Shown here piece by piece: positions 3,492-40,113 of a stretch of 50,416 nucleotides of DNA. Where the stretch lies: positions 1 through 50,416 of IMG/VR virus record IMGVR_UViG_3300036822_000288. One strand, written 5' to 3'. The stretch comes from a virus (Duplodnaviria; Caudoviricetes). A model generated the notes under the pieces. That model had not been told where the DNA came from. It did not search any database and saw only the letters and a list, made by a program, of their open reading frames with translations. Every line of letters begins with the position of its first letter. The stretch's first letter is position 1. Both the position numbers and the translations under genes were made by a program.

Positions 3492-3700
3492 GCCACCCTC
3501 CGATGTCTCTGCGCCCACAATTCCTTCTCATGGTCTTCCCGGCACTCACTGCAACAATAGCTTGTCCCTTCAAGTGATGGCTCGCCGCAGTCTGCATTCA
3601 AGCAAACCGGTGAGCGCGGCGCGGGTATCGGGCGATTAGCCAGCGCTATCTCTGTGTTGAGGATTTCGAGGTCTGATGCGTTATCTGCTTCATCGCACAT
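3488..3700 (-). CDS. TraR/DksA-like zinc-finger protein
   Basis: N-terminal DEADNA (DxxDxA) plus C-x4-C...CCxxC. Confidence 0.7.
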   Translation of the reverse strand: MCDEADNASDLEILNTEIALANRPIPAPRSPVCLNADCGEPSLEGTSYCCSECREDHEKELWAQRHRRVA

Positions 3701-3965
3701 TTTCCATCTCCTTAAATGCCTGCTCACACTGCAAAGCCACGCGGTTAATGTGCTGCTCCATCGCCTGCAGCGACTGCACATCTGACAGTTGCACATCCAG
3801 GTGAATCAGCCCGGTAATCGCTTGGCTGAATTTTGGGTAGTAGCCGACGAGTGACAGGTATTCGCTGCCAGCGTTCTTTCCTTCCTTGACTGTCTTCTTC
3901 TCCTGAACGATGTACTGATACTGGTCAGCGGTCAGGACGTATTTGTCGCCGATGTCGATTTGCAT
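3690..3965 (-). CDS. DUF5405-like phage protein
   Basis: IDIGDKYVLTADQYQYIVQEKK...VGYYPK pattern. Confidence 0.75.
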   Translation of the reverse strand: MQIDIGDKYVLTADQYQYIVQEKKTVKEGKNAGSEYLSLVGYYPKFSQAITGLIHLDVQLSDVQSLQAMEQHINRVALQCEQAFKEMENVR

Positions 3966-3989
3966 GGTATTTCTCCAAAATTTGAGCGT

Positions 3990-4010
3990 AAAAAAACCTG
4001 CCGGGGCAGG
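3990..4010 (-). terminator. Rho-independent terminator
   Basis: CCTGC..GCAGG hairpin + T7 on minus strand. Confidence 0.7.
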
Positions 4011-4190
4011 TTATGTTTTTTTCTCTGTATTGTCTTTGGGTGTGTCATCAGGCCACGGCTCATCGCTTAGCGGTCCACTATCACCGCATTCTGCACACAC
4101 CCAGTCGCCAGTCCTGATTCCTCTGACAATTTCTTTGCTGATAGCAAATGAGCCACACTCAGGACACTTCTTTGGTTTATAACGAGCCAT
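4011..4190 (-). CDS. 59-aa zinc-ribbon protein (moron-like)
   Basis: MARYKPKKCPECGSFAISKEIVRGIRTGDWVCAECGDSGPL...; GAGG RBS; AT-rich upstream; own terminator; not in ORF track. Confidence 0.75.
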   Translation of the reverse strand: MARYKPKKCPECGSFAISKEIVRGIRTGDWVCAECGDSGPLSDEPWPDDTPKDNTEKKT

Positions 4191-6426: not shown

Positions 6427-7244
6427 GCGTAATCCTTTCTCTTGGCCCACTCAGGGCGCGTGATTTCTTCAATGCCGCCCCAGTTACCTGACTGCATGCA
6501 TTCGTGGTAGGCGGTCAGGTCGCGGCGGAACAGGTCATAACCGACTGAAACGTCATCCTCGCCGAGTTGGAAAACGCGAACCGGATACCGGCCGCAATCA
6601 ATTGACTCGCTAACGGCGATGAAAACGAAAAGCGGGTATTCGCCAAAGTGCTTGCTGTAGCCTTCGCGGTAGTAGGCGTCCTGAACGTGATAGCGGAACT
6701 CTTCGACGTGGCGCGCAAATCGGCTCATGTCCGCGACTTTCTTCACGTCCACGATCACTGGCTGGCCGGTCAGGAATTTATCCGGGCGAATACGGCATAG
6801 CTCGCCGGTTTGGTCATCGTTCCAGTAAATCGATGCTTCCTGATGCCCTTCGACTTCGAGAAGCCAGCGGGCGGCGGGATGGGCGAGGGCGCTGGCACGC
6901 ATCAGTTTCAGTTTTCGCCCCTGCTCGGCATCCATCACCGTCATACCAAGCCCTGAGCAGTCCTTCAGAAACGCCTGCTCGTTCGCTTTACCTTCGTTGG
7001 TGCGGCGGTTGAACTCCGGCGCAACGATAAACCGCTTGTCGAACTCTTCCGGCTCCAGCAGCAGGCAGTGAAGCGCGGTGCCCATATCGAGCGCCGCTTT
7101 CTTCTCTTCATCTTCAGGTGCCTCTTTGCGCCACTGGAAAATGGCTGGGTTGATCGCAATGTCATCTAGCTGCGACTTACTGATGCCGGCGCCGTGGTGA
7201 TACGCTTCGTTGCTGATGTCGAAATAAATGCCAGGCTCCATCAC
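6423..7244 (-). CDS. recE: RecE/ExoVIII-like PD-(D/E)XK exonuclease (catalytic domain only)
   Basis: GIYFDISNEAYH, GTALHCLLLEP, CRIRPDK, IVDVKK, YHVQDAYY. Confidence 0.9.
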   Translation of the reverse strand: MMEPGIYFDISNEAYHHGAGISKSQLDDIAINPAIFQWRKEAPEDEEKKAALDMGTALHCLLLEPEEFDKRFIVAPEFNRRTNEGKANEQAFLKDCSGLGMTVMDAEQGRKLKLMRASALAHPAARWLLEVEGHQEASIYWNDDQTGELCRIRPDKFLTGQPVIVDVKKVADMSRFARHVEEFRYHVQDAYYREGYSKHFGEYPLFVFIAVSESIDCGRYPVRVFQLGEDDVSVGYDLFRRDLTAYHECMQSGNWGGIEEITRPEWAKRKDYA

Positions 7245-33676: not shown

Positions 33677-34234
33677 TCATTTCTCAATGTTTTTGGAGTT
33701 GTAATATGCATTTAGAAAATAGTTCAAGTGACCCCATATCCATGCTGCAACCTCATGGTTCGGAGAGCGAAACACTAAAGTCACTTTCTGATAGGTTTGA
33801 CCATAAATCTCCAGAGGGGTCAGCTCCCACACAAGGCAATTACGAGCATATTGAGTGGCCTCTGAAGGGTTTTCCTCCTGCGCAGAAACCATAGCCTCAT
33901 GAAGATATCTGTAAAAATCTTCATCTAAATGGTGAAGTGAGCTTCTAAGTTTTTCTGGTGCATCTGGCCTAAGAGAAAAGTCGACATAACCGAAAATATG
34001 TTGACCATCCTCTTGATCCCATACACATCCCAGCGTCATGAATAGTCTTTCTGGTTTATTCGTTTCCGCAATGAATTCCTTCAGCCATACAGCGCCTTCG
34101 AGTTCGTGTATCTCATTTATTCTGTGTGGCTCTTTAATCAGGTCAATGCCGCCGTTATTGATGTCTCCATTTTCTCGCACGCATGGGCGATAGGGAAATT
34201 TAACGAAATGGTCGTTATGGCTGTTGTCTTCCAT
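33677..34234 (-). CDS. Antisense moron protein, unknown function (185 aa)
   Basis: Opposite strand inside tail operon, visibly more AT-rich, AGGA RBS. Confidence 0.8.
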   Translation of the reverse strand: MEDNSHNDHFVKFPYRPCVRENGDINNGGIDLIKEPHRINEIHELEGAVWLKEFIAETNKPERLFMTLGCVWDQEDGQHIFGYVDFSLRPDAPEKLRSSLHHLDEDFYRYLHEAMVSAQEENPSEATQYARNCLVWELTPLEIYGQTYQKVTLVFRSPNHEVAAWIWGHLNYFLNAYYNSKNIEK

Positions 34235-34384
34235 ATGATCTTCCTGTGATGGGTCTACACAAAGATTATCGTAGAGGAACAACTTCACCCATCCTGATAG
34301 ATGATCAGTGCTTATGGTTCTTGCTTCCCATTGCGCTCTATCCTGGCTAGGATTTATCCCACTGTTACTTTTGGGATTATGGAC

Positions 34385-34681
34385 ATGAAAAAACTAATTT
34401 TGGGCGCGATTGCTGCGGCTTTGCTATCTGGGTGTGTTTACACCGGCACAAACTTTGATGAGTCGAAGTTGGCAAACGTTCACAAAGGAGAAACCACTAA
34501 GCAGGAAGTGATCTCCTATTTTGGCAATCCATCTACCACCACTGTGGATTCAGATGGTAATGAATTGCTGATGTGGACTTACAGCATTGGTAGCGCTTTC
34601 GGCGCAGATGCAAAGGTGCTCACAGTAAAAACACATAACGGTACAGTCGAATCTTACTCGGTCAGCAAATCGAAAATATAA
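34385..34681 (+). CDS. BamE/SmpA-like lipoprotein (moron)
   Basis: Lipobox LSGC; VHKGETTKQEVISYFGNP...WTY; terminator at 34700-34724. Confidence 0.82.
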   Translation: MKKLILGAIAAALLSGCVYTGTNFDESKLANVHKGETTKQEVISYFGNPSTTTVDSDGNELLMWTYSIGSAFGADAKVLTVKTHNGTVESYSVSKSKI

Positions 34682-34740
34682 ATTCGGTATCGAACACATA
34701 ACCTCGCTCAGGCGGGGTTTTTTTATGCCTGGAGATCATG

Positions 34741-37700
34741 ATGGCTGGTGCTTATAACGCAGGCAGTATCGTTTATGAAGTTGATATGGAGACTGCTAAG
34801 CTCATTGCGGCGCGGAGAGAAGTTGATGCCGCGTTAAGTGGTATGAGCGGCAGCATGGGTCGACTCGAGGCCAGCGTTAGCAAAACAGAAAAGTCGATTT
34901 CTTCCATGGAAGGCGCCGTTTCAAGCCTGACAGGAGTCGCTAAGGGTCTTCTTGCCGCGCTTTCTGTTCATCAGGTGGCGGAATGGGGCAATGAGTGGGT
35001 AACGGTCAACAACAAGCTCGTAAACTCCGTTCGCACCACCGAGCAACTTGCCGACGTCACTCAGCGCGTGTTCGACATAGCGCAAAGCACACGATCAGGA
35101 CTTGAAGCGACCGCCACCCTCTACGGTCGCCTTGAGCGCTCAACCCGCAGCGCCGGCACGAGCACTAAAGATCTGATCACGCTGACATCGACCATCAACA
35201 AAGGTCTGGCCGTTTCAGGTGCGACAACTGAAGAAGCCAGTTCCACCATGACGCAGCTTTCTCAGGCGCTTGCATCCGGCGTTCTTCGCGGCGAAGAATT
35301 TAACTCCATATCTGAGAACGGTAGCCGTCTGGCTGTTGCGCTGGCTGACTCACTCGGCGTGACCATTGGCCAGCTGCGCGCAATGGCTGCAGAAGGAAAG
35401 CTAACCACAGAGGTAGTAGTTAACGGCCTTCTGAAACAAAGCGACGTAATCGCTAAAGAGTTTTCCAATACCGCGACCACAATGAGCCAGGCGTTTACGA
35501 TCGCAACCAACAACATCACCAAGTTTGTTGGCGAAAGCTCAACCGTATCAACCGGGATTAAGGTATTCAACTCGGGAATTATTTCCCTTTCTCAGAATCT
35601 CGACACCATCAGTGCCGTGCTCGTTACGCTGACTGCGGCGATGGGTAGCCGCTTTGCCGGTGCACTGGCTATGGCTACTGCTGCAAAGTTAAAAGACACA
35701 GCCGCGACTATCGCATCAGCGAAAGCATCAGAAGTAGCTGCGAAAGATGCTGAGTTAGAGGCGTCCGCTAAACTGCGCCTCGCTAACGTTGAGAAAGCAG
35801 CAACCGTCCAGACGCTGCAGTTAGCAGAAGGACGCCTGGCGACGATGCGCAGCACACAGGCCTCTGTTGCTGCTGAGGTGCAATTAGCGGAGGCAGAGTC
35901 GGCGTCAATCCGAACTACCATCGCTCAGATTGAGTCAGAAAAGGCACTCGAAGCACAGCGCTTGCGTGCACAGATTACGGATCAGGGACGCGTTGCCACG
36001 GCTACACGCATGGCACAGTTACAGCAGGCATCCGCTGCGTTGAATTCTCGCTTAGCAGCAGCAGAAGCAGCCACAGCAGAAGCCAGAGCAGCCGCCATTG
36101 CCTCAGCAGAGGCATCAGTCAGTGCAGCCCGTCTTGCTGCGGCTGATGCAACTGGCGTGGCCACAGCTGCCAATGGCCGGTACATCGCATCTCAGGAAGC
36201 GTCTGTGATTGCCACACGCGCTGCCTCAACATCTCTTGGATTGCTGCGCGGAGCACTTGGTTTGGTAGGCGGCCCCGCTGGCGTGGCTATGCTGGCAGGA
36301 GCAGCAATCTTCTATTTTTGGCAGCAGTCCCAGCAGGCAAAACAGGAAGCGATCTCGTTCGCCGATGGAGTAGACCGCCTGACCGACTCGCTCAAAGCAA
36401 TGAGTAATACCTCGTTGCGTGGCACGATCGCCGATGCAAATACTGCATTGCGAGGTCAGCAAGATGTTGTGTCAGACCTCAAAGATGAAATTGCAGAACT
36501 GACCAGAAAGAGAGATGAGGCGGAGGCATCTGGGAAAAAGTACGGCACAACGATTGAGCAAGGTAACGGCCTGTTATTACGCGCTGCGCAACTTACCGAT
36601 CAGATTAACCAGAAACAACGCGATCTGGAGAACACCGAAAGCAAGTTAGCCAACACCACGAAACTACGCGACGACGCGCAGGTTACGCTAAGCAACAACA
36701 TGCTGACTGCGATGGGCATTCACGACAAGTTAATTGAGCGTGGCACCACACTCGAAAGAGTTCAGGGTGCAGTTGCAAAGGCGTTTGGCACAACAGCTGA
36801 CGAGATAAATCGCGCCAATCAAGCAGGTCAGGCATACAACCCCAAATCACTGCAGGTTTCTCCAGCGACTCCAAAAGGGGATGAGGCGATTTTGGGGCTT
36901 GAACAGCAAAACGAGTTGCTTAAAATTCAGGACGAACGCCTGCGAGCAGTTACTAAGGCTGGCATGGAGCAAGCCAAGGTAACCAGCAACCCTAATCAGA
37001 TTGCAGCTGCTAAACGCCTTGCTGGGGAAAACTTCGATCTCCAGCAGGCTGAAGATGCCAGAAAGAAAGCGGCATCAGATGCAGAGTCGCAAGCTAAACG
37101 GTCGGCATCATCGGCAGAGTCAGTAGCTGAAAAGCTGGCGAAGCTGAAAGAGCAGTCTGAGCTAGCAGGAGAATCGACCCGACAGTTAAGCAGAGACCAG
37201 GCGATACTGACAGCGCAGCAATCCCTTGGATCATCAGCCACCCCAGAGCAGGTTAAGCTTGCTGGCGAGTATGCAGCAGCAAAATGGGATACTGGAAATG
37301 CAATTCGTGCCCAGGCTGCGGCAGAAAAGCTTCTGCCCGAAGCACGTGAAAACGCGAGCTATAAGCAGGATTTAGAAGATCTGAAAACTGCTTTGTCTGC
37401 GAAGAAAATCACTCAGCAGCAGGCCGATGCAACAGCTGAACAACTGGAGAAGCAACACCAGATCAATATTGCCAAAATCCGCGCGCAACAGGCAGTTTCG
37501 CCTGCGCAGGAAGCCGTTGGCACTGTTGATCCTGTGCAGCAACTTGCCAACCAAAATGCTCAAAAGCTCGCACTCATCCAGCAGTTCGAGCAACAGAGAT
37601 TGGTTACAGAGCAGCAGGGCTTGGCGTTGCGGAATGCCGCTAATACGGAGTATGAGCAGCAGCGAATTGCCGCGCAGTGGGAAATCTATCGCAGCCAGAG

Positions 37701-38436
37701 CCAGTCTAATGAGCTTTTGGCGACCGCTATAGACTCGCTTCAGGGCGGTGCGTCAAACGCCATCACAGGCCTGCTTAACGGTACGCAAAGCCTTGGAGAA
37801 GCATTTGCCAATATCGGTAGCACCATTCTGAACTCAGTGGTTAGTAGCTTGGTTCAGATGGGGCTGGAGTGGGTTAAATCGCAGATCATTGGTCAAACAG
37901 CTCAGCAGGCCGCAATACTTTCCAACCAAGCTACGTCCGCTGCAGCTCTGGCATCATCAACCGCCATGGGAGCCGCCTCAGCCGCAACGCTGCTTGCAGC
38001 ATATTCACCGGCTGCAATGGCTGCTTCTATTGCCACCTCTGGCGGCGCGGCAGCTGCTGGCCTGACTGGCTACACAACGGCAATGACCGCTGCGCAAACC
38101 ATGTCTCTTGCAGGTATGCGCGAGCACGGCGGCCCCGTTAACGCCAACAGCATGTACCGTGTAGGCGAGGGCGGTAAGCCTGAAATCTTCAAGGCCAGCA
38201 ATGGCAGTCAGTACATGATTCCTGGTGATAACGGATCGGTGATCAGCAATAAAGATATTGGCGGTTCTGGCGGTGGCGGCGGCGGGATGGTGATGAATTT
38301 CAATTTCGATATTCAGACTACTGGCGGCGTCGACGAGGCGACACAGAAGCAGATGGCTCAGATGATGCAAACCGTAGCGATCCGCACCATTAAAGACCAG
38401 CAAAGGCCATCCGGATTACTCAGCAAAGGTAGATAA
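34741..38436 (+). CDS. H: Tape measure protein
   Basis: QLSQALASGVLRGEEFNSI domain; long Ala-rich helical sequence. Confidence 0.95.
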   Translation: MAGAYNAGSIVYEVDMETAKLIAARREVDAALSGMSGSMGRLEASVSKTEKSISSMEGAVSSLTGVAKGLLAALSVHQVAEWGNEWVTVNNKLVNSVRTTEQLADVTQRVFDIAQSTRSGLEATATLYGRLERSTRSAGTSTKDLITLTSTINKGLAVSGATTEEASSTMTQLSQALASGVLRGEEFNSISENGSRLAVALADSLGVTIGQLRAMAAEGKLTTEVVVNGLLKQSDVIAKEFSNTATTMSQAFTIATNNITKFVGESSTVSTGIKVFNSGIISLSQNLDTISAVLVTLTAAMGSRFAGALAMATAAKLKDTAATIASAKASEVAAKDAELEASAKLRLANVEKAATVQTLQLAEGRLATMRSTQASVAAEVQLAEAESASIRTTIAQIESEKALEAQRLRAQITDQGRVATATRMAQLQQASAALNSRLAAAEAATAEARAAAIASAEASVSAARLAAADATGVATAANGRYIASQEASVIATRAASTSLGLLRGALGLVGGPAGVAMLAGAAIFYFWQQSQQAKQEAISFADGVDRLTDSLKAMSNTSLRGTIADANTALRGQQDVVSDLKDEIAELTRKRDEAEASGKKYGTTIEQGNGLLLRAAQLTDQINQKQRDLENTESKLANTTKLRDDAQVTLSNNMLTAMGIHDKLIERGTTLERVQGAVAKAFGTTADEINRANQAGQAYNPKSLQVSPATPKGDEAILGLEQQNELLKIQDERLRAVTKAGMEQAKVTSNPNQIAAAKRLAGENFDLQQAEDARKKAASDAESQAKRSASSAESVAEKLAKLKEQSELAGESTRQLSRDQAILTAQQSLGSSATPEQVKLAGEYAAAKWDTGNAIRAQAAAEKLLPEARENASYKQDLEDLKTALSAKKITQQQADATAEQLEKQHQINIAKIRAQQAVSPAQEAVGTVDPVQQLANQNAQKLALIQQFEQQRLVTEQQGLALRNAANTEYEQQRIAAQWEIYRSQSQSNELLATAIDSLQGGASNAITGLLNGTQSLGEAFANIGSTILNSVVSSLVQMGLEWVKSQIIGQTAQQAAILSNQATSAAALASSTAMGAASAATLLAAYSPAAMAASIATSGGAAAAGLTGYTTAMTAAQTMSLAGMREHGGPVNANSMYRVGEGGKPEIFKASNGSQYMIPGDNGSVISNKDIGGSGGGGGGMVMNFNFDIQTTGGVDEATQKQMAQMMQTVAIRTIKDQQRPSGLLSKGR

Positions 38437-38440
38437 ATCC

Positions 38441-38794
38441 ATGCCAGAAACTTTCACATGGAGCCCGCAATCGGGCTTCACGGGCGAGCGTACGCCTGAT
38501 GTAGCCGTCGTGAAGTTAGGTGATGGCTACGAACAGCGCCAGGTGAAGGGTATCAACCCACTGATGGGGAAATATCCGCTCACCTTCATTGGCTACGACG
38601 ATTCCAAATGTGGGCGGGTAAACGTGGCGAAAGCGGTGGATGCCTTCCTGACTGCGCGAATGTCTGTTGAGTCGTTCTACTGGACGCCACCAGATACCGG
38701 CGTTCAGGCGCTGTATGTGTGCCGCTCCTGGTCGATGCAGAAGACCAAGGGGGTTTACACGTTAACCGGAACTTTCGAACAAGTACCCCGATAA
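38441..38794 (+). CDS. M: Minor tail protein M
   Basis: ETFTW...LGDGYEQR...SFYWTPP...FEQV. Confidence 0.9.
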   Translation: MPETFTWSPQSGFTGERTPDVAVVKLGDGYEQRQVKGINPLMGKYPLTFIGYDDSKCGRVNVAKAVDAFLTARMSVESFYWTPPDTGVQALYVCRSWSMQKTKGVYTLTGTFEQVPR

Positions 38795-38809
38795 CTGAGG
38801 AGTAATATC

Positions 38810-39028
38810 ATGACTTTAGAACAACGAGTAGAAGCGTTAGAAAAGGCGGTGGCTAAACTGACATTGCCTAGTGAAACAGCCGAAGAACTGGCTAAGGTGA
38901 TGCGTGATGTTGCGAAAGAGACGATTAAGAATGCGCGTCGGCCTGGTGGTGTGTTGCATAAGCTGGATGAAAAAGCGGCTCATGCTAACGCCGCTTACAA
39001 TGTCAGCTTAGGAATTAATTGCCGCTAA
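38810..39028 (+). CDS. 72-aa protein resembling the TMP C-terminus
   Basis: GAGGAG RBS; 13/29 ungapped identities to the last helix of the TMP. Confidence 0.8.
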   Translation: MTLEQRVEALEKAVAKLTLPSETAEELAKVMRDVAKETIKNARRPGGVLHKLDEKAAHANAAYNVSLGINCR

Positions 39029-39233
39029 TATTTGAAAGATTTTTAGCCCATTCCTGAATGGGAGCATTAGGAATGGTATTCAATTCCTTTACCAACTGCG
39101 CGCGCGAACCCTCATCGAGTTTTAAGGCGATAGCCAGCAAAATTGCTTTCATATCATTCAGTTCAGCCTGAATTTCAGACTCGCTACCAGCTTTGGAATG
39201 AAATTCGAAAGTAGAGTGTTTTTCTTGAATCAT
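39015..39233 (-). CDS. 72-aa antisense helical moron protein
   Basis: AAGGA RBS, structured leader, converges on 38810-39028. Confidence 0.8.
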   Translation of the reverse strand: MIQEKHSTFEFHSKAGSESEIQAELNDMKAILLAIALKLDEGSRAQLVKELNTIPNAPIQEWAKNLSNISGN

Positions 39234-39408
39234 TTTATTCCTTTAACCAGAGGTAATCAGCCATCCCTCATTGTTGTTTGCGTCCATGCCCCAAACATGG
39301 ACGGGCTGAATACTCAACATATCCTTATCAGTAAATCAGCAACATCCTGATATTCGATCAGTAATCATCTGACGGCTGCCGCATGGCGGCCTTTTTTATG
39401 GGCGCAAT

Positions 39409-40113
39409 ATGCGAGACATACCAGCAGAACTAATCATCGAGAGTGTTGATGCCGGTGTCGGCGCAATGCTCGACCTGTATGAAGTCGACCTGCAATCGTT
39501 CGGCGGCGATGTGATCCGCTTCCACGCTGGCACCAATGGCTATTACAACGATGTCATCTGGCAGGGGCGCGCTTATTCGGCCTATCCGATCGCCGTTGAA
39601 GGCTTCGAGGTCAAATCGGAGGGAACGTATTCGCGTCCGACGATGAAGGTAGCGAACATTACCGGCCTGATTACCGGCATCAACCACGATTTCGATGATG
39701 CGCTGGGAGCCGTGGTGACGCGCCGGCAGGTGCTGGTTAAGCATCTGGACGCCGTGAACTTCCCGAACGGTAATGCAGATGCGGATCCGACAATGGAGGC
39801 AGTTTCCCGCTACGTCATCGAAGAGATGGCAGAAGAGACGTTCGAGACTGTTACCTACAACCTAGCCACGCCAGTGGACTGTGATAACGCCATTATTCCG
39901 GCGCGCACCATTCTGGCTGACGTGTGCCAGTGGGTGTATCGCGGAGATGGCTGCGGCTATTCCGGCGGCGCTGTTGCCGATGAGAAGGATAACCCAACGT
40001 CTGACCTGTCACGCGATAAGTGCTCTAAGCACCGCAGCGGCTGTCGGATGCGATTCGTTAAACCCTCCGCGCTGCCATACGGCGGCTATCCCGGCTCTGC
40101 CAAGGTGTCCTGA
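39409..40113 (+). CDS. L: Minor tail protein L
   Basis: WQGRAY..YPI..EGFE; CQWVYRGDGCGY...DKCSK...GC. Confidence 0.93.
   Translation: MRDIPAELIIESVDAGVGAMLDLYEVDLQSFGGDVIRFHAGTNGYYNDVIWQGRAYSAYPIAVEGFEVKSEGTYSRPTMKVANITGLITGINHDFDDALGAVVTRRQVLVKHLDAVNFPNGNADADPTMEAVSRYVIEEMAEETFETVTYNLATPVDCDNAIIPARTILADVCQWVYRGDGCGYSGGAVADEKDNPTSDLSRDKCSKHRSGCRMRFVKPSALPYGGYPGSAKVS

Follow-up and report, generated by a model that had tools for sequence, protein, structure and literature searches.

Small antisense genes placed inside the late operons of phages, and faced by late genes that counteract their products, have already been described in the Tab and Tai systems. In the Pseudomonas phage JBD26, Tab has a promoter of its own and is encoded on the minus strand, and anti-Tab, located right behind a late gene, binds Tab; among Pseudomonas phages, the sensitivity to this assembly blocker maps to the C-terminus of the tape measure protein (TMP) (PMC10884400). 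In phi80, Tai is encoded antisense in a Q-dependent operon and is expressed in lysogeny, the adjoining Ati counteracts it, and expression of Q lowers the amount of Tai protein; Ati accompanies only 5 of 57 Tai homologues (PMC11364771). A further defence protein, the nuclease HepS of Gifsy-1, is bound and activated by a 32-residue peptide of lambda J (residues 902-933), in which Q922 and F924 are central (PMC13043305). Antisense defence genes with late antidotes (Tab, Tai) were already known, as were the morons annotated at such sites in the records of HK022 and ES18. Here we analyse a convergent pair of open reading frames (ORFs) of 72 amino acids each, ORF-A on the late strand and ORF-B on the opposite one, located between the genes of the minor tail proteins gpM and gpL in the viral record IMGVR_UViG_3300036822_000288 (Caudoviricetes), whose whole length of 50,416 nucleotides (nt) is called the window in the following.

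Comparison with related sequences indicates that a modular cassette, found in lambdoid prophages at several places of the late operon, is present here in one copy, and that the leader of ORF-B is a portable expression module, behind which at least 16 unrelated small cargo types are found in other phages. The explanation that we prefer, with a probability of about 0.5, is that the cassette joins an accessory gene expressed in lysogeny, ORF-B, to a late-expressed modular partner, ORF-A, carrying a mimic module that would be independent of ORF-B and is possibly a decoy.

The locus resembles Tab/anti-Tab in that a minus-strand gene with its own (here candidate) promoter lies in the late operon, facing a small plus-strand gene that immediately follows a late gene, and in that the TMP C-terminus, the relevant target region of Tab, is the part copied by ORF-A. 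Unlike Tab, which is found between the terminase genes, ORF-A and ORF-B stand between gpM and gpL, and ORF-B also pairs with partners lacking the TMP-like part; the two systems are likened by arrangement and not by sequence. As in the 'noncontiguous operon' of Tai/Ati, an antisense gene interrupts the late operon and a small late gene adjoins it; and as Tai often occurs without Ati (5/57), the cargo genes considered here are also found without an A-type partner. Tai differs in its size (26.1 kDa for TaiEcA against the 72 residues of ORF-B, a comparison of size and layout and not of homology), in its target, the C-terminal region of J, and in the position of the phi80 locus, before the packaging genes. 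The likeness of architecture drawn by an earlier annotation of this DNA from its letters alone (hereafter the sequence-only reading), namely a small late-strand gene facing an antisense gene inside the late operon, fits both published systems, and Tab/anti-Tab and Tai/Ati offer, by analogy, a precedent for the logic of expression that we propose below. The HK022 gp22/gp23 and ES18 gp24/gp25 cassettes have the same leader and late-strand terminator and are annotated as morons ('possible morons' in ES18); they differ in their sites (gpI-gpJ in HK022) and in their partners (ES18 gp24 is a DUF1327 protein), none of which is TMP-like.

The late-strand protein and the tail peptides copied by its family

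Both 72-residue ORFs of the sequence-only reading were confirmed on their strands (Table 1), with an overlap of 14 nt at 39015-39028. ORF-A is a real gene under purifying selection. A search found 16 homologues, and of 11 pairs compared, two were saturated and nine gave values: the ratio of nonsynonymous to synonymous substitution rates (dN/dS) over codons 1-52 was about 0.11-0.28 in eight of these nine pairs and 0.52 in the remaining one, a close pair. Synonymous differences were 0.26-0.75, up to saturation, and codons 1-18 behaved like the TMP-like codons 22-52. These values speak against the idea that ORF-A is a functionless by-product, that is, a frame that happens to be readable at the conserved edge of the cassette, as do the Shine-Dalgarno sequence found 15 nt after the gpM stop and the preservation of the ORF-A core across six unrelated cargo groups. 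What this idea would explain is the C-tail of ORF-A, which is read from the antisense of the 3' untranslated region (UTR) and terminator of ORF-B and therefore changes with the cargo; we regard it as scarcely credible for the protein as a whole.

The AlphaFold2 (AF2) model of ORF-A has helices at residues 3-15, 21-43 and 48-68, with a mean confidence (pLDDT) of 71.8. The short N-terminal coiled coil proposed from the letters is borne out by the first of these helices and by the ORF-A profile, which matches designed coiled coils; a search of the PDB sequences with this profile gave matches limited to designed coiled coils and helical repeats. The same heptad-helix start was also found in mEp213 gp71 and in SPN3UB gp28 and gp32.

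The likeness of ORF-A to the end of the window's own TMP, which the sequence-only reading had noticed, is real. An ungapped alignment pairs ORF-A residues 23-51 with TMP residues 1202-1230 at 13/29 identities (E 1e-6 in pairwise BLASTP), and comparison by hhalign of the 16 ORF-A homologues with 23 distinct TMP C-termini gave a probability of 94.6% and an E of 6.9e-8, in a register that puts ORF-A 20-52 on the last 34 TMP residues. Because the family profiles agree to this degree, the match is, by sequence comparison, more than chance. Most of the family members that were individually checked match the same TMP end, and the TMP ends of the 23 related phages have ...RP-x-G-[LMI]-[LI] in common. 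The sensitivity to Tab does map to a TMP C-terminus (PMC10884400).

In lambda, residues 818-849 of the 853-residue TMP, gpH, form a trimer seated on gpI at the tail tip, and just three of the six TMP C-termini are visible on gpI, according to the structural report (PMC12617516). The part copied by ORF-A consists of the last ~30 residues of the TMP, ending R-x-G-G-L-x-S, which BLASTP cannot align with the gpH end; the TMP end of the window may thus be taken as the positional equivalent of gpH 818-849, with weak support from the sequence. Against the PDB the TMP end gave one weak row (chain Tape_meas_lam_C, E 1.8), and the gp18 TMP chain 9occ_M was matched only farther upstream in the TMP.

Docking at the tail tip is, as we infer, the main alternative to a decoy for the ORF-A module. 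ORF-A would then be an assembly or virion protein that sits on gpI as the TMP end does and serves as a chaperone, a timer or a co-ejected protein. It is placed among the tail-tip genes and translated with them, it copies the TMP end, 26 of the 29 loci found with ORF-A as anchor are directly behind gpM, and the three TMP C-termini of six seen on lambda gpI suit such a role. On the other hand, relatives with ~94% identical gpL are without the segment or without the whole cassette, so tails can do without it; assembly ought to suffer from a competitor at the TMP site; and the link to gpI is positional only. For these reasons we hold a tail-tip protein to be rather unlikely.

The TMP end is not the sole tail peptide copied by this family. 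A profile of three partners of the SPN3UB gp32 type matches residues 961-986 of J, in the J family of the window, with a probability of 93.1% and an E of 3.2e-7, and SPN3UB gp32 also matches a PHROG tail-fibre family (E 0.0012). In a pairwise alignment of lambda J with the window J, ...GNQIFMNDVFL stands opposite ...NGQVFISDAFI, and the lambda stretch includes Q922 and F924. It is these gp32-type sister partners, and not the ORF-A of the window, that copy the J motif of the HepS trigger containing Q922 and F924 in lambda. The C-terminal motif of the partners, Y-x-L-x-x-G-I-N, was also compared with J residues 903-915, with a weaker result (E 4.3e-4, probability 34%).

The TMP-end copy in ORF-A may be a decoy, and we favour this reading over docking because it best explains why two different modules copy peptides on which known defences depend. 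In its external form, ORF-A and its sisters would be late decoys against tail-directed defences (Tab-, Tai- or HepS-like) of other prophages, satellites or the host, with ORF-B unrelated to this task. Besides the two peptides (the TMP end for Tab, the J region of F924 for HepS, in the published work), it would account for the middle modules, which swap independently of ORF-B, and for the shared oligomerising helix, which would present several copies; moreover, the authors of the HepS study suspect that a phage with a HepS-activating J possesses an unidentified resistance factor (PMC13043305). Against it, a copy of a trigger peptide could activate the sensor instead of absorbing it, and L085-type partners keep both Q and F; furthermore, TMP-like partners occur in only 3 of 77 leader-anchored cassettes among the matches listed, and the similarities are short. 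We consider this external form possible, although doubtful. A more general view, slightly better placed and still tentative, is that the MTLEQRVEALEK proteins are late-expressed epitope decoys, in which a short oligomerising helix presents exchangeable tail-tip peptides, and that their genes accompany a slot for changing lysogeny cargo, expressed through the conserved promoter and structured leader, so that a single cassette would have one slot for attack and another for shield in conflicts among phages; the copied peptides would be the TMP C-terminus, which decides the sensitivity to Tab, and the peptide of the J central fibre bound by HepS. A literature search returned no description of a protein that mimics the TMP or acts as its decoy; one preprint reports an Avs family that senses TMP.

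Exchange of modules, cargo and sites

The sequence-only reading had coupled the two genes: ORF-B, made in lysogeny, would be a Tab-like blocker binding the TMP C-terminus of incoming phages, and ORF-A a decoy protecting the resident phage. In favour of this model are the gene arrangement of Tab/anti-Tab and the Tab sensitivity located at the TMP C-terminus (PMC10884400), as well as the real TMP copy in ORF-A. In addition, a decoy that copies the target would work against any blocker, which could explain one ORF-A core beside many B types.

A search with the ORF-A family gave 29 loci, 26 of them directly behind a gpM homologue, with gpL visible downstream in 23 of the 26. A convergent antisense ORF is present at the ORF-A 3' end in 29/29 of these loci, but it belongs to eight sequence types, and when the search starts from B1, the type of ORF-B, a TMP-like partner is found in only 5 of 16 loci. 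By hhalign, B1, B4 and B8 are related (97.4%, 76.6% and 69.7%) and all other pairs of B types stay at or below 8%; since three of the eight types are related, six B groups remain without a detectable relation. Beside all of them, ORF-A residues 1-52 are one family in all 29 loci, and the residues past 52 vary with the B type. All 16 B1 loci have a convergent partner, which starts with LE(Q/E/K)R...LE in 15/16 and in nearly all cases ends in Y-x-[LMI]-x-x-G-I-N, whereas the middle is TMP-like in five, J-fibre-like in one and neither in ten. The loci L040 and L041 illustrate the exchange: their ORF-B-type proteins are identical at 66/72 positions and their partners have the same C-tail, and yet the middles of these partners differ, one being J-like, the other TMP-like. 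The comparison points to a modular family of partners, with a heptad helix common to their N-termini, a middle that can be exchanged and a C-tail travelling with the cargo type.

A further result speaks against the self-decoy: over 27 loci the ORF-A segment was no nearer to its own TMP (8.1/30 identical) than to other TMP types (7.9/30), and identical A/B pairs stand beside different TMP end types (L004/L011, L005/L006, L019-L023, L024-L026). The locus L052, whose ORF-A-type segment ends ...RPGGVIY next to its own TMP end ...KPGGMIY, speaks for the self-decoy. Against it, HK022 and ES18 have cargo without an A-type partner. The coupling of a TMP-binding ORF-B to an ORF-A self-decoy was thus not sustained, with one ORF-A core beside six B groups and no TMP-like segment in 11/16 B1 partners, and we consider it unlikely. 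Rather, given the six B groups, the L040/L041 swap, the 5/16 TMP-like partners and an own TMP that is no closer, the mimic module of ORF-A appears to act independently of ORF-B.

L052 is also unusual in other respects. In this distant phage (2703-5158), with gpM, gpL and gpK only ~32-34% identical, the TMP gene and gpM flank the cassette, and the nearness of the two ends goes opposite to the trend of the other loci.

To survey the cassette beyond the ORF-A family, two exact leader words were searched and found in at least 119 viral contigs; the numbers that follow refer to 80 loci among the matches listed. A cargo ORF follows directly after the leader in 77 of the 80, in at least 16 clusters (BLASTP E < 1e-4, single linkage). 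In these 77 loci, an MTLEQR-like partner start is present in 40 by a strict pattern and a TMP-like partner in 3. As for the sites, 27 cassettes are between gpM and gpL, 6 before gpM, 6 before gpJ and 3 before the TMP or lipoprotein gene, while in 29 the flanks are unlike the reference genes and in 6 one of the two flanks is too short to be read. ES18 and Oslo have the cassette as gp24/gp25, with the label 'possible moron' in the ES18 record, and HK022 has it between gpI and gpJ, with the cargo gp23 annotated 'srb protein; moron gene product'. Leader matches are also present in mEp213, mEp043 and HK633, and in mEp213 the cassette sits after Rz. SPN3UB (L003) carries two cassettes, at 3623-4016 and 6720-7110, upstream of the TMP gene and between gpM and gpL, with the same leader and MTLEQRVEALEK partners and with differing middles and cargo. 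In E. coli, the HK022 copy has matches in only 16 of 5426 complete genomes, on the leader and terminator side, with nothing over the cargo gene. Literature searches, whose scope left aside the ES18 and HK97/HK022 genome papers and the supplements of the Tai and HepS studies, found a shared structured leader as a portable module nowhere described, nor the MTLEQRVEALEK partner family with its exchangeable copies of tail-tip peptides.

Other cargo behind the same leader includes proteins of 169-211 amino acids (L072, L088, L123), a 63-residue protein with two C-x-x-C pairs (L073) and an 87-residue protein (L075); these five loci are all without an MTLEQR-type partner.

ORF-B itself belongs, on sequence comparison, to a conserved family and is a real gene under selection. 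A search of 1.84 billion representatives gave 18 matches, 15 of which are about 72 residues long and have eight invariant residues. ORF-B matches phrog_6806 over residues 7-67 (E 2.5e-9), and its profile matches HK022 gp23 over 60 columns (90.9%, E 1.2e-6), which makes it a remote homologue of this 'srb' protein; a literature search for srb found nothing, and BLASTP of ES18 gp25 against ORF-B showed no similarity. The AF2 model comprises three helices (18-37, 41-51 and 57-69; pLDDT 86.9), for which Foldseek returned nothing at E <= 0.001 in the PDB and BFVD. The sequence-only reading had recognised neither family, and indeed both ORF-A and ORF-B are present in PHROGs under the label 'unknown function'. 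PADLOC 2023, a release that may predate Tab, gave no match for ORF-A, ORF-B or the two upstream accessory ORFs described in the last section, and none for four of five other cargo types scanned, the fifth (L007) having a weak DndF row (E 0.018) that is likely chance. Two runs of complex prediction of ORF-B with ORF-A from alignments, without controls, scored 0.00, which is evidence neither way.

A different use of the slot would be to supply host-modulating proteins with no role at the tail, for example IraP-like anti-adaptors that raise RpoS in lysogens. The unrelated cargo B2 (L004) matches the Pfam family Anti-adapt_IraP with E 0.0069 and 17.5 bits (E 0.0145 genome-wide), and for ORF-B the Atlas gave a lead at rank 17 with a score of 0.78. 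However, the 17.5 bits of B2 fall short of the curated cut-off (23.2 bits), Atlas scores below 0.9 count as leads only, and when 11 cargo sets were compared by hhalign with two Pantoea IraP proteins, the probability was at most 7.2%. ORF-B as an IraP anti-adaptor was not upheld, as 0/15 B1 members match PF10796 (E up to 1), and we judge a host-modulating slot very unlikely. The Pantoea genome G001, which carries the B2-type locus L004, has two full IraP-family genes elsewhere (L035 and L036, 99.6 and 89.2 bits), with no leader upstream of either.

Leader, terminators and the proposed mode of expression

That the antisense gene has its own leader and putative promoter, as had been read from the letters, holds and is stronger than was claimed: a -10 box of the form TAnnnT, with T, A and T invariant, and a leader of about 80 nt are conserved in 28/28 aligned cassettes. 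The leader folds into a helix P1, pairing 39304-39309 with 39257-39262, and a hairpin P2 inside it (39281-39303). P1 (UCAGCC/GGCUGA) begins ~7 nt past the -10 box and is identical in 27 of 28 sequences, the remaining one having a U-G pair. Three sequence versions of P2 are known from the alignment (in 11, 12 and 3 sequences); 3 of its 8 pairs show compensatory changes, and further changes on one side preserve pairing. Over the 28 sequences, 94.3% of the cells of P1 and P2 are paired, compared to 20-40% when the partners are slid, and the covariation score was 0.190 vs 0.118, reached by 0 of 500 shuffles. Among the pairs are several G-U wobbles of the minus strand, which on the plus strand would read C-A, so the structure belongs to the ORF-B mRNA. 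The leader word GAGGGAUGGCUGAUUACCUCU is conserved, and by fold prediction its CCUCU can pair with the Shine-Dalgarno sequence. In Rfam, no family reached the gathering score for the leader, the best being isrD (20.5 bits vs 37), which covers the terminator only.

The terminator of ORF-B lies 18 nt beyond its stop and folds at -20.5 kcal/mol (z -3.44), a value equalled by 0 of 200 shuffles; a pattern scan for terminators missed it because its loop is 10 nt. On the late strand, the hairpin and T run before gpL are visible in 17 of 20 aligned sequences, cassettes at other sites included, which indicates that this terminator belongs to the cassette.

An inverted repeat at 39322-39362 overlies the -35 region of the ORF-B promoter, with a repeat at the corresponding place in other loci too. 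It varies in step with the cassette group (TATCAG...CTGATA in that of the window, CAGGGT...ACCCTG in that of ES18) and could serve a regulator as its operator or form a hairpin in the late-strand RNA.

Expression of the cassette might then proceed as follows. ORF-B would be expressed while the prophage is repressed, under a weak promoter, and the 5'-terminal stem-loop would probably stabilise its mRNA or gate its ribosome-binding site. After induction, antiterminated late transcription would read through both terminators and run antisense across ORF-B, lowering the expression of ORF-B and yielding ORF-A along with the tail-tip proteins. ORF-B would be an accessory protein serving the lysogen, most likely in phage-phage conflict, and the cargo slot, with many unrelated small proteins behind one leader, would be a hot spot for accessory or conflict functions. 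The mimic module of ORF-A would act late, as a decoy for proteins that grip the copied tail epitope, or would dock at the tail tip; if ORF-A also neutralises ORF-B, the C-tail linked to the cargo would be a likelier contact than the TMP-like helix.

Several observations weigh against this explanation. The promoter and start site of ORF-B are candidates, proposed from conservation because a sigma-70 consensus scan finds no site there, and the -35 region is poor. The counts of covariation in the leader are inflated by the relatedness of the sequences, and the leader survey is biased to the exact leader words. In the public RNA runs all shares were at or below 0.10, and the four runs compared represent long contigs of relatives and not transcripts of the locus. 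BLASTP of the TMP end of the window against that of lambda gpH gave nothing, so that docking on gpI rests on position, and the ORF-A profile found the gpH end in the expected register (825-849) with an E of 0.017 and a probability of 2.6%. The J-like and the Y-x-L-x-x-G-I-N similarities cover short stretches. Finally, the PHROGs label 'unknown' applies to the cargo and partner families alike, and PADLOC had nothing for ORF-A or ORF-B.

Tiny genes without annotation abound in the tail operons of temperate phages, and many of them are assigned here to a single portable cassette that can be recognised by its RNA leader. This leader is an easy marker for cargo that would be expressed in lysogeny, and a first sample has already given at least 16 unrelated clusters. 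Facing the cargo, late genes bear short copies of tail peptides on which known anti-phage proteins depend. Should these copies be decoys, they would amount to a compact form of counter-defence that is easy to retarget, and would reveal the tail epitopes at which attacks are aimed; otherwise, the leader remains a candidate for a new cis-regulatory RNA and the cargo slot a source of new accessory functions of prophages.

Surroundings of the cassette in the window

By CheckV (100%) the provirus in the window is complete, and its integrase gene is at 946-2247. Residues 830-1000 of its J protein are 94-97% identical to proteins from Pantoea genomes, and the host is therefore probably Pantoea. The tail genes lie on the plus strand in the lambda order (TMP, gpM, gpL, gpK, gpI, gpJ); the features discussed above are collected in Table 1.

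Table 1. Features of the cassette and of the adjoining tail genes, in positions of the window.
Feature	Positions	Strand	Basis or remark
TMP gene	34738-38436	+	
TMP C-terminal segment (residues 1202-1230 of 1232), copied by ORF-A	38341..38427	+	BLASTP
gpM-like minor tail protein, late gene upstream of the pair	38441..38794	+	PF05939, E 2e-29
ORF-A, 72 amino acids, late strand	38810-39028	+	Start 15 nt past the gpM stop, behind GAGGAG
N-terminal heptad helix MTLEQRVEALEKAV of ORF-A	38810..38854	+	Common to partners in many cassettes
TMP C-terminus-like segment, ORF-A residues 20-52	38867..38965	+	hhalign, BLASTP
Intrinsic terminator of ORF-B	38966..38996	-	Stem AAGCGGC/GCCGCUU, then UUUUUC; within ORF-A codons 53-63
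ORF-B, 72 amino acids, antisense cargo gene, phrog_6806 / HK022 gp23 ('srb') family	39015-39233	-	Profile matches
Conserved structured 5' leader of ORF-B	39234..39312	-	Alignments, RNAalifold
Candidate promoter region of ORF-B	39313..39350	-	-10 box TATGTT at 39321-39316
Late-strand intrinsic terminator, just before gpL	39374..39397	+	7-pair stem with 6 G-C, then T run
gpL-like minor tail protein, late gene downstream of the pair	39409..40113	+	PF05100, E 2.6e-73

In lambda the genes M and L abut, whereas in the window 614 nt separate gpM from gpL, and the GC content of this insert is 0.41-0.47, compared to 0.55-0.62 in the flanks. Additional DNA of this kind, with deviating GC and placed between genes that adjoin each other in relatives, corresponds to the description of morons in PMC3594210; of the promoter and terminator that a moron is expected to own, the terminators are clear, and the promoter has an invariant -10 box with no consensus sigma-70 match by scan. 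Related contigs from public runs show both the absence and the exchange of the cassette. In X8 it is absent from 38794 to 39385, with 144 nt from gpM to the terminator on the gpL side; in X1 and X2, positions 38636-39246 are exchanged for 727 other letters, and the edge at 39246 is the beginning of the leader.

A second accessory island is located at 33677-34681, immediately upstream of the TMP gene. It has no copy of the leader, whose word is present once in the whole window. It consists of an antisense ORF of 203 amino acids at 33677-34288, matching phrog_18578 (E 2.2e-21), and of a late-strand lipoprotein of 126 amino acids at 34301-34681 (phrog_3135), with a lipobox and a weak Cor-like signal (E 0.0087).

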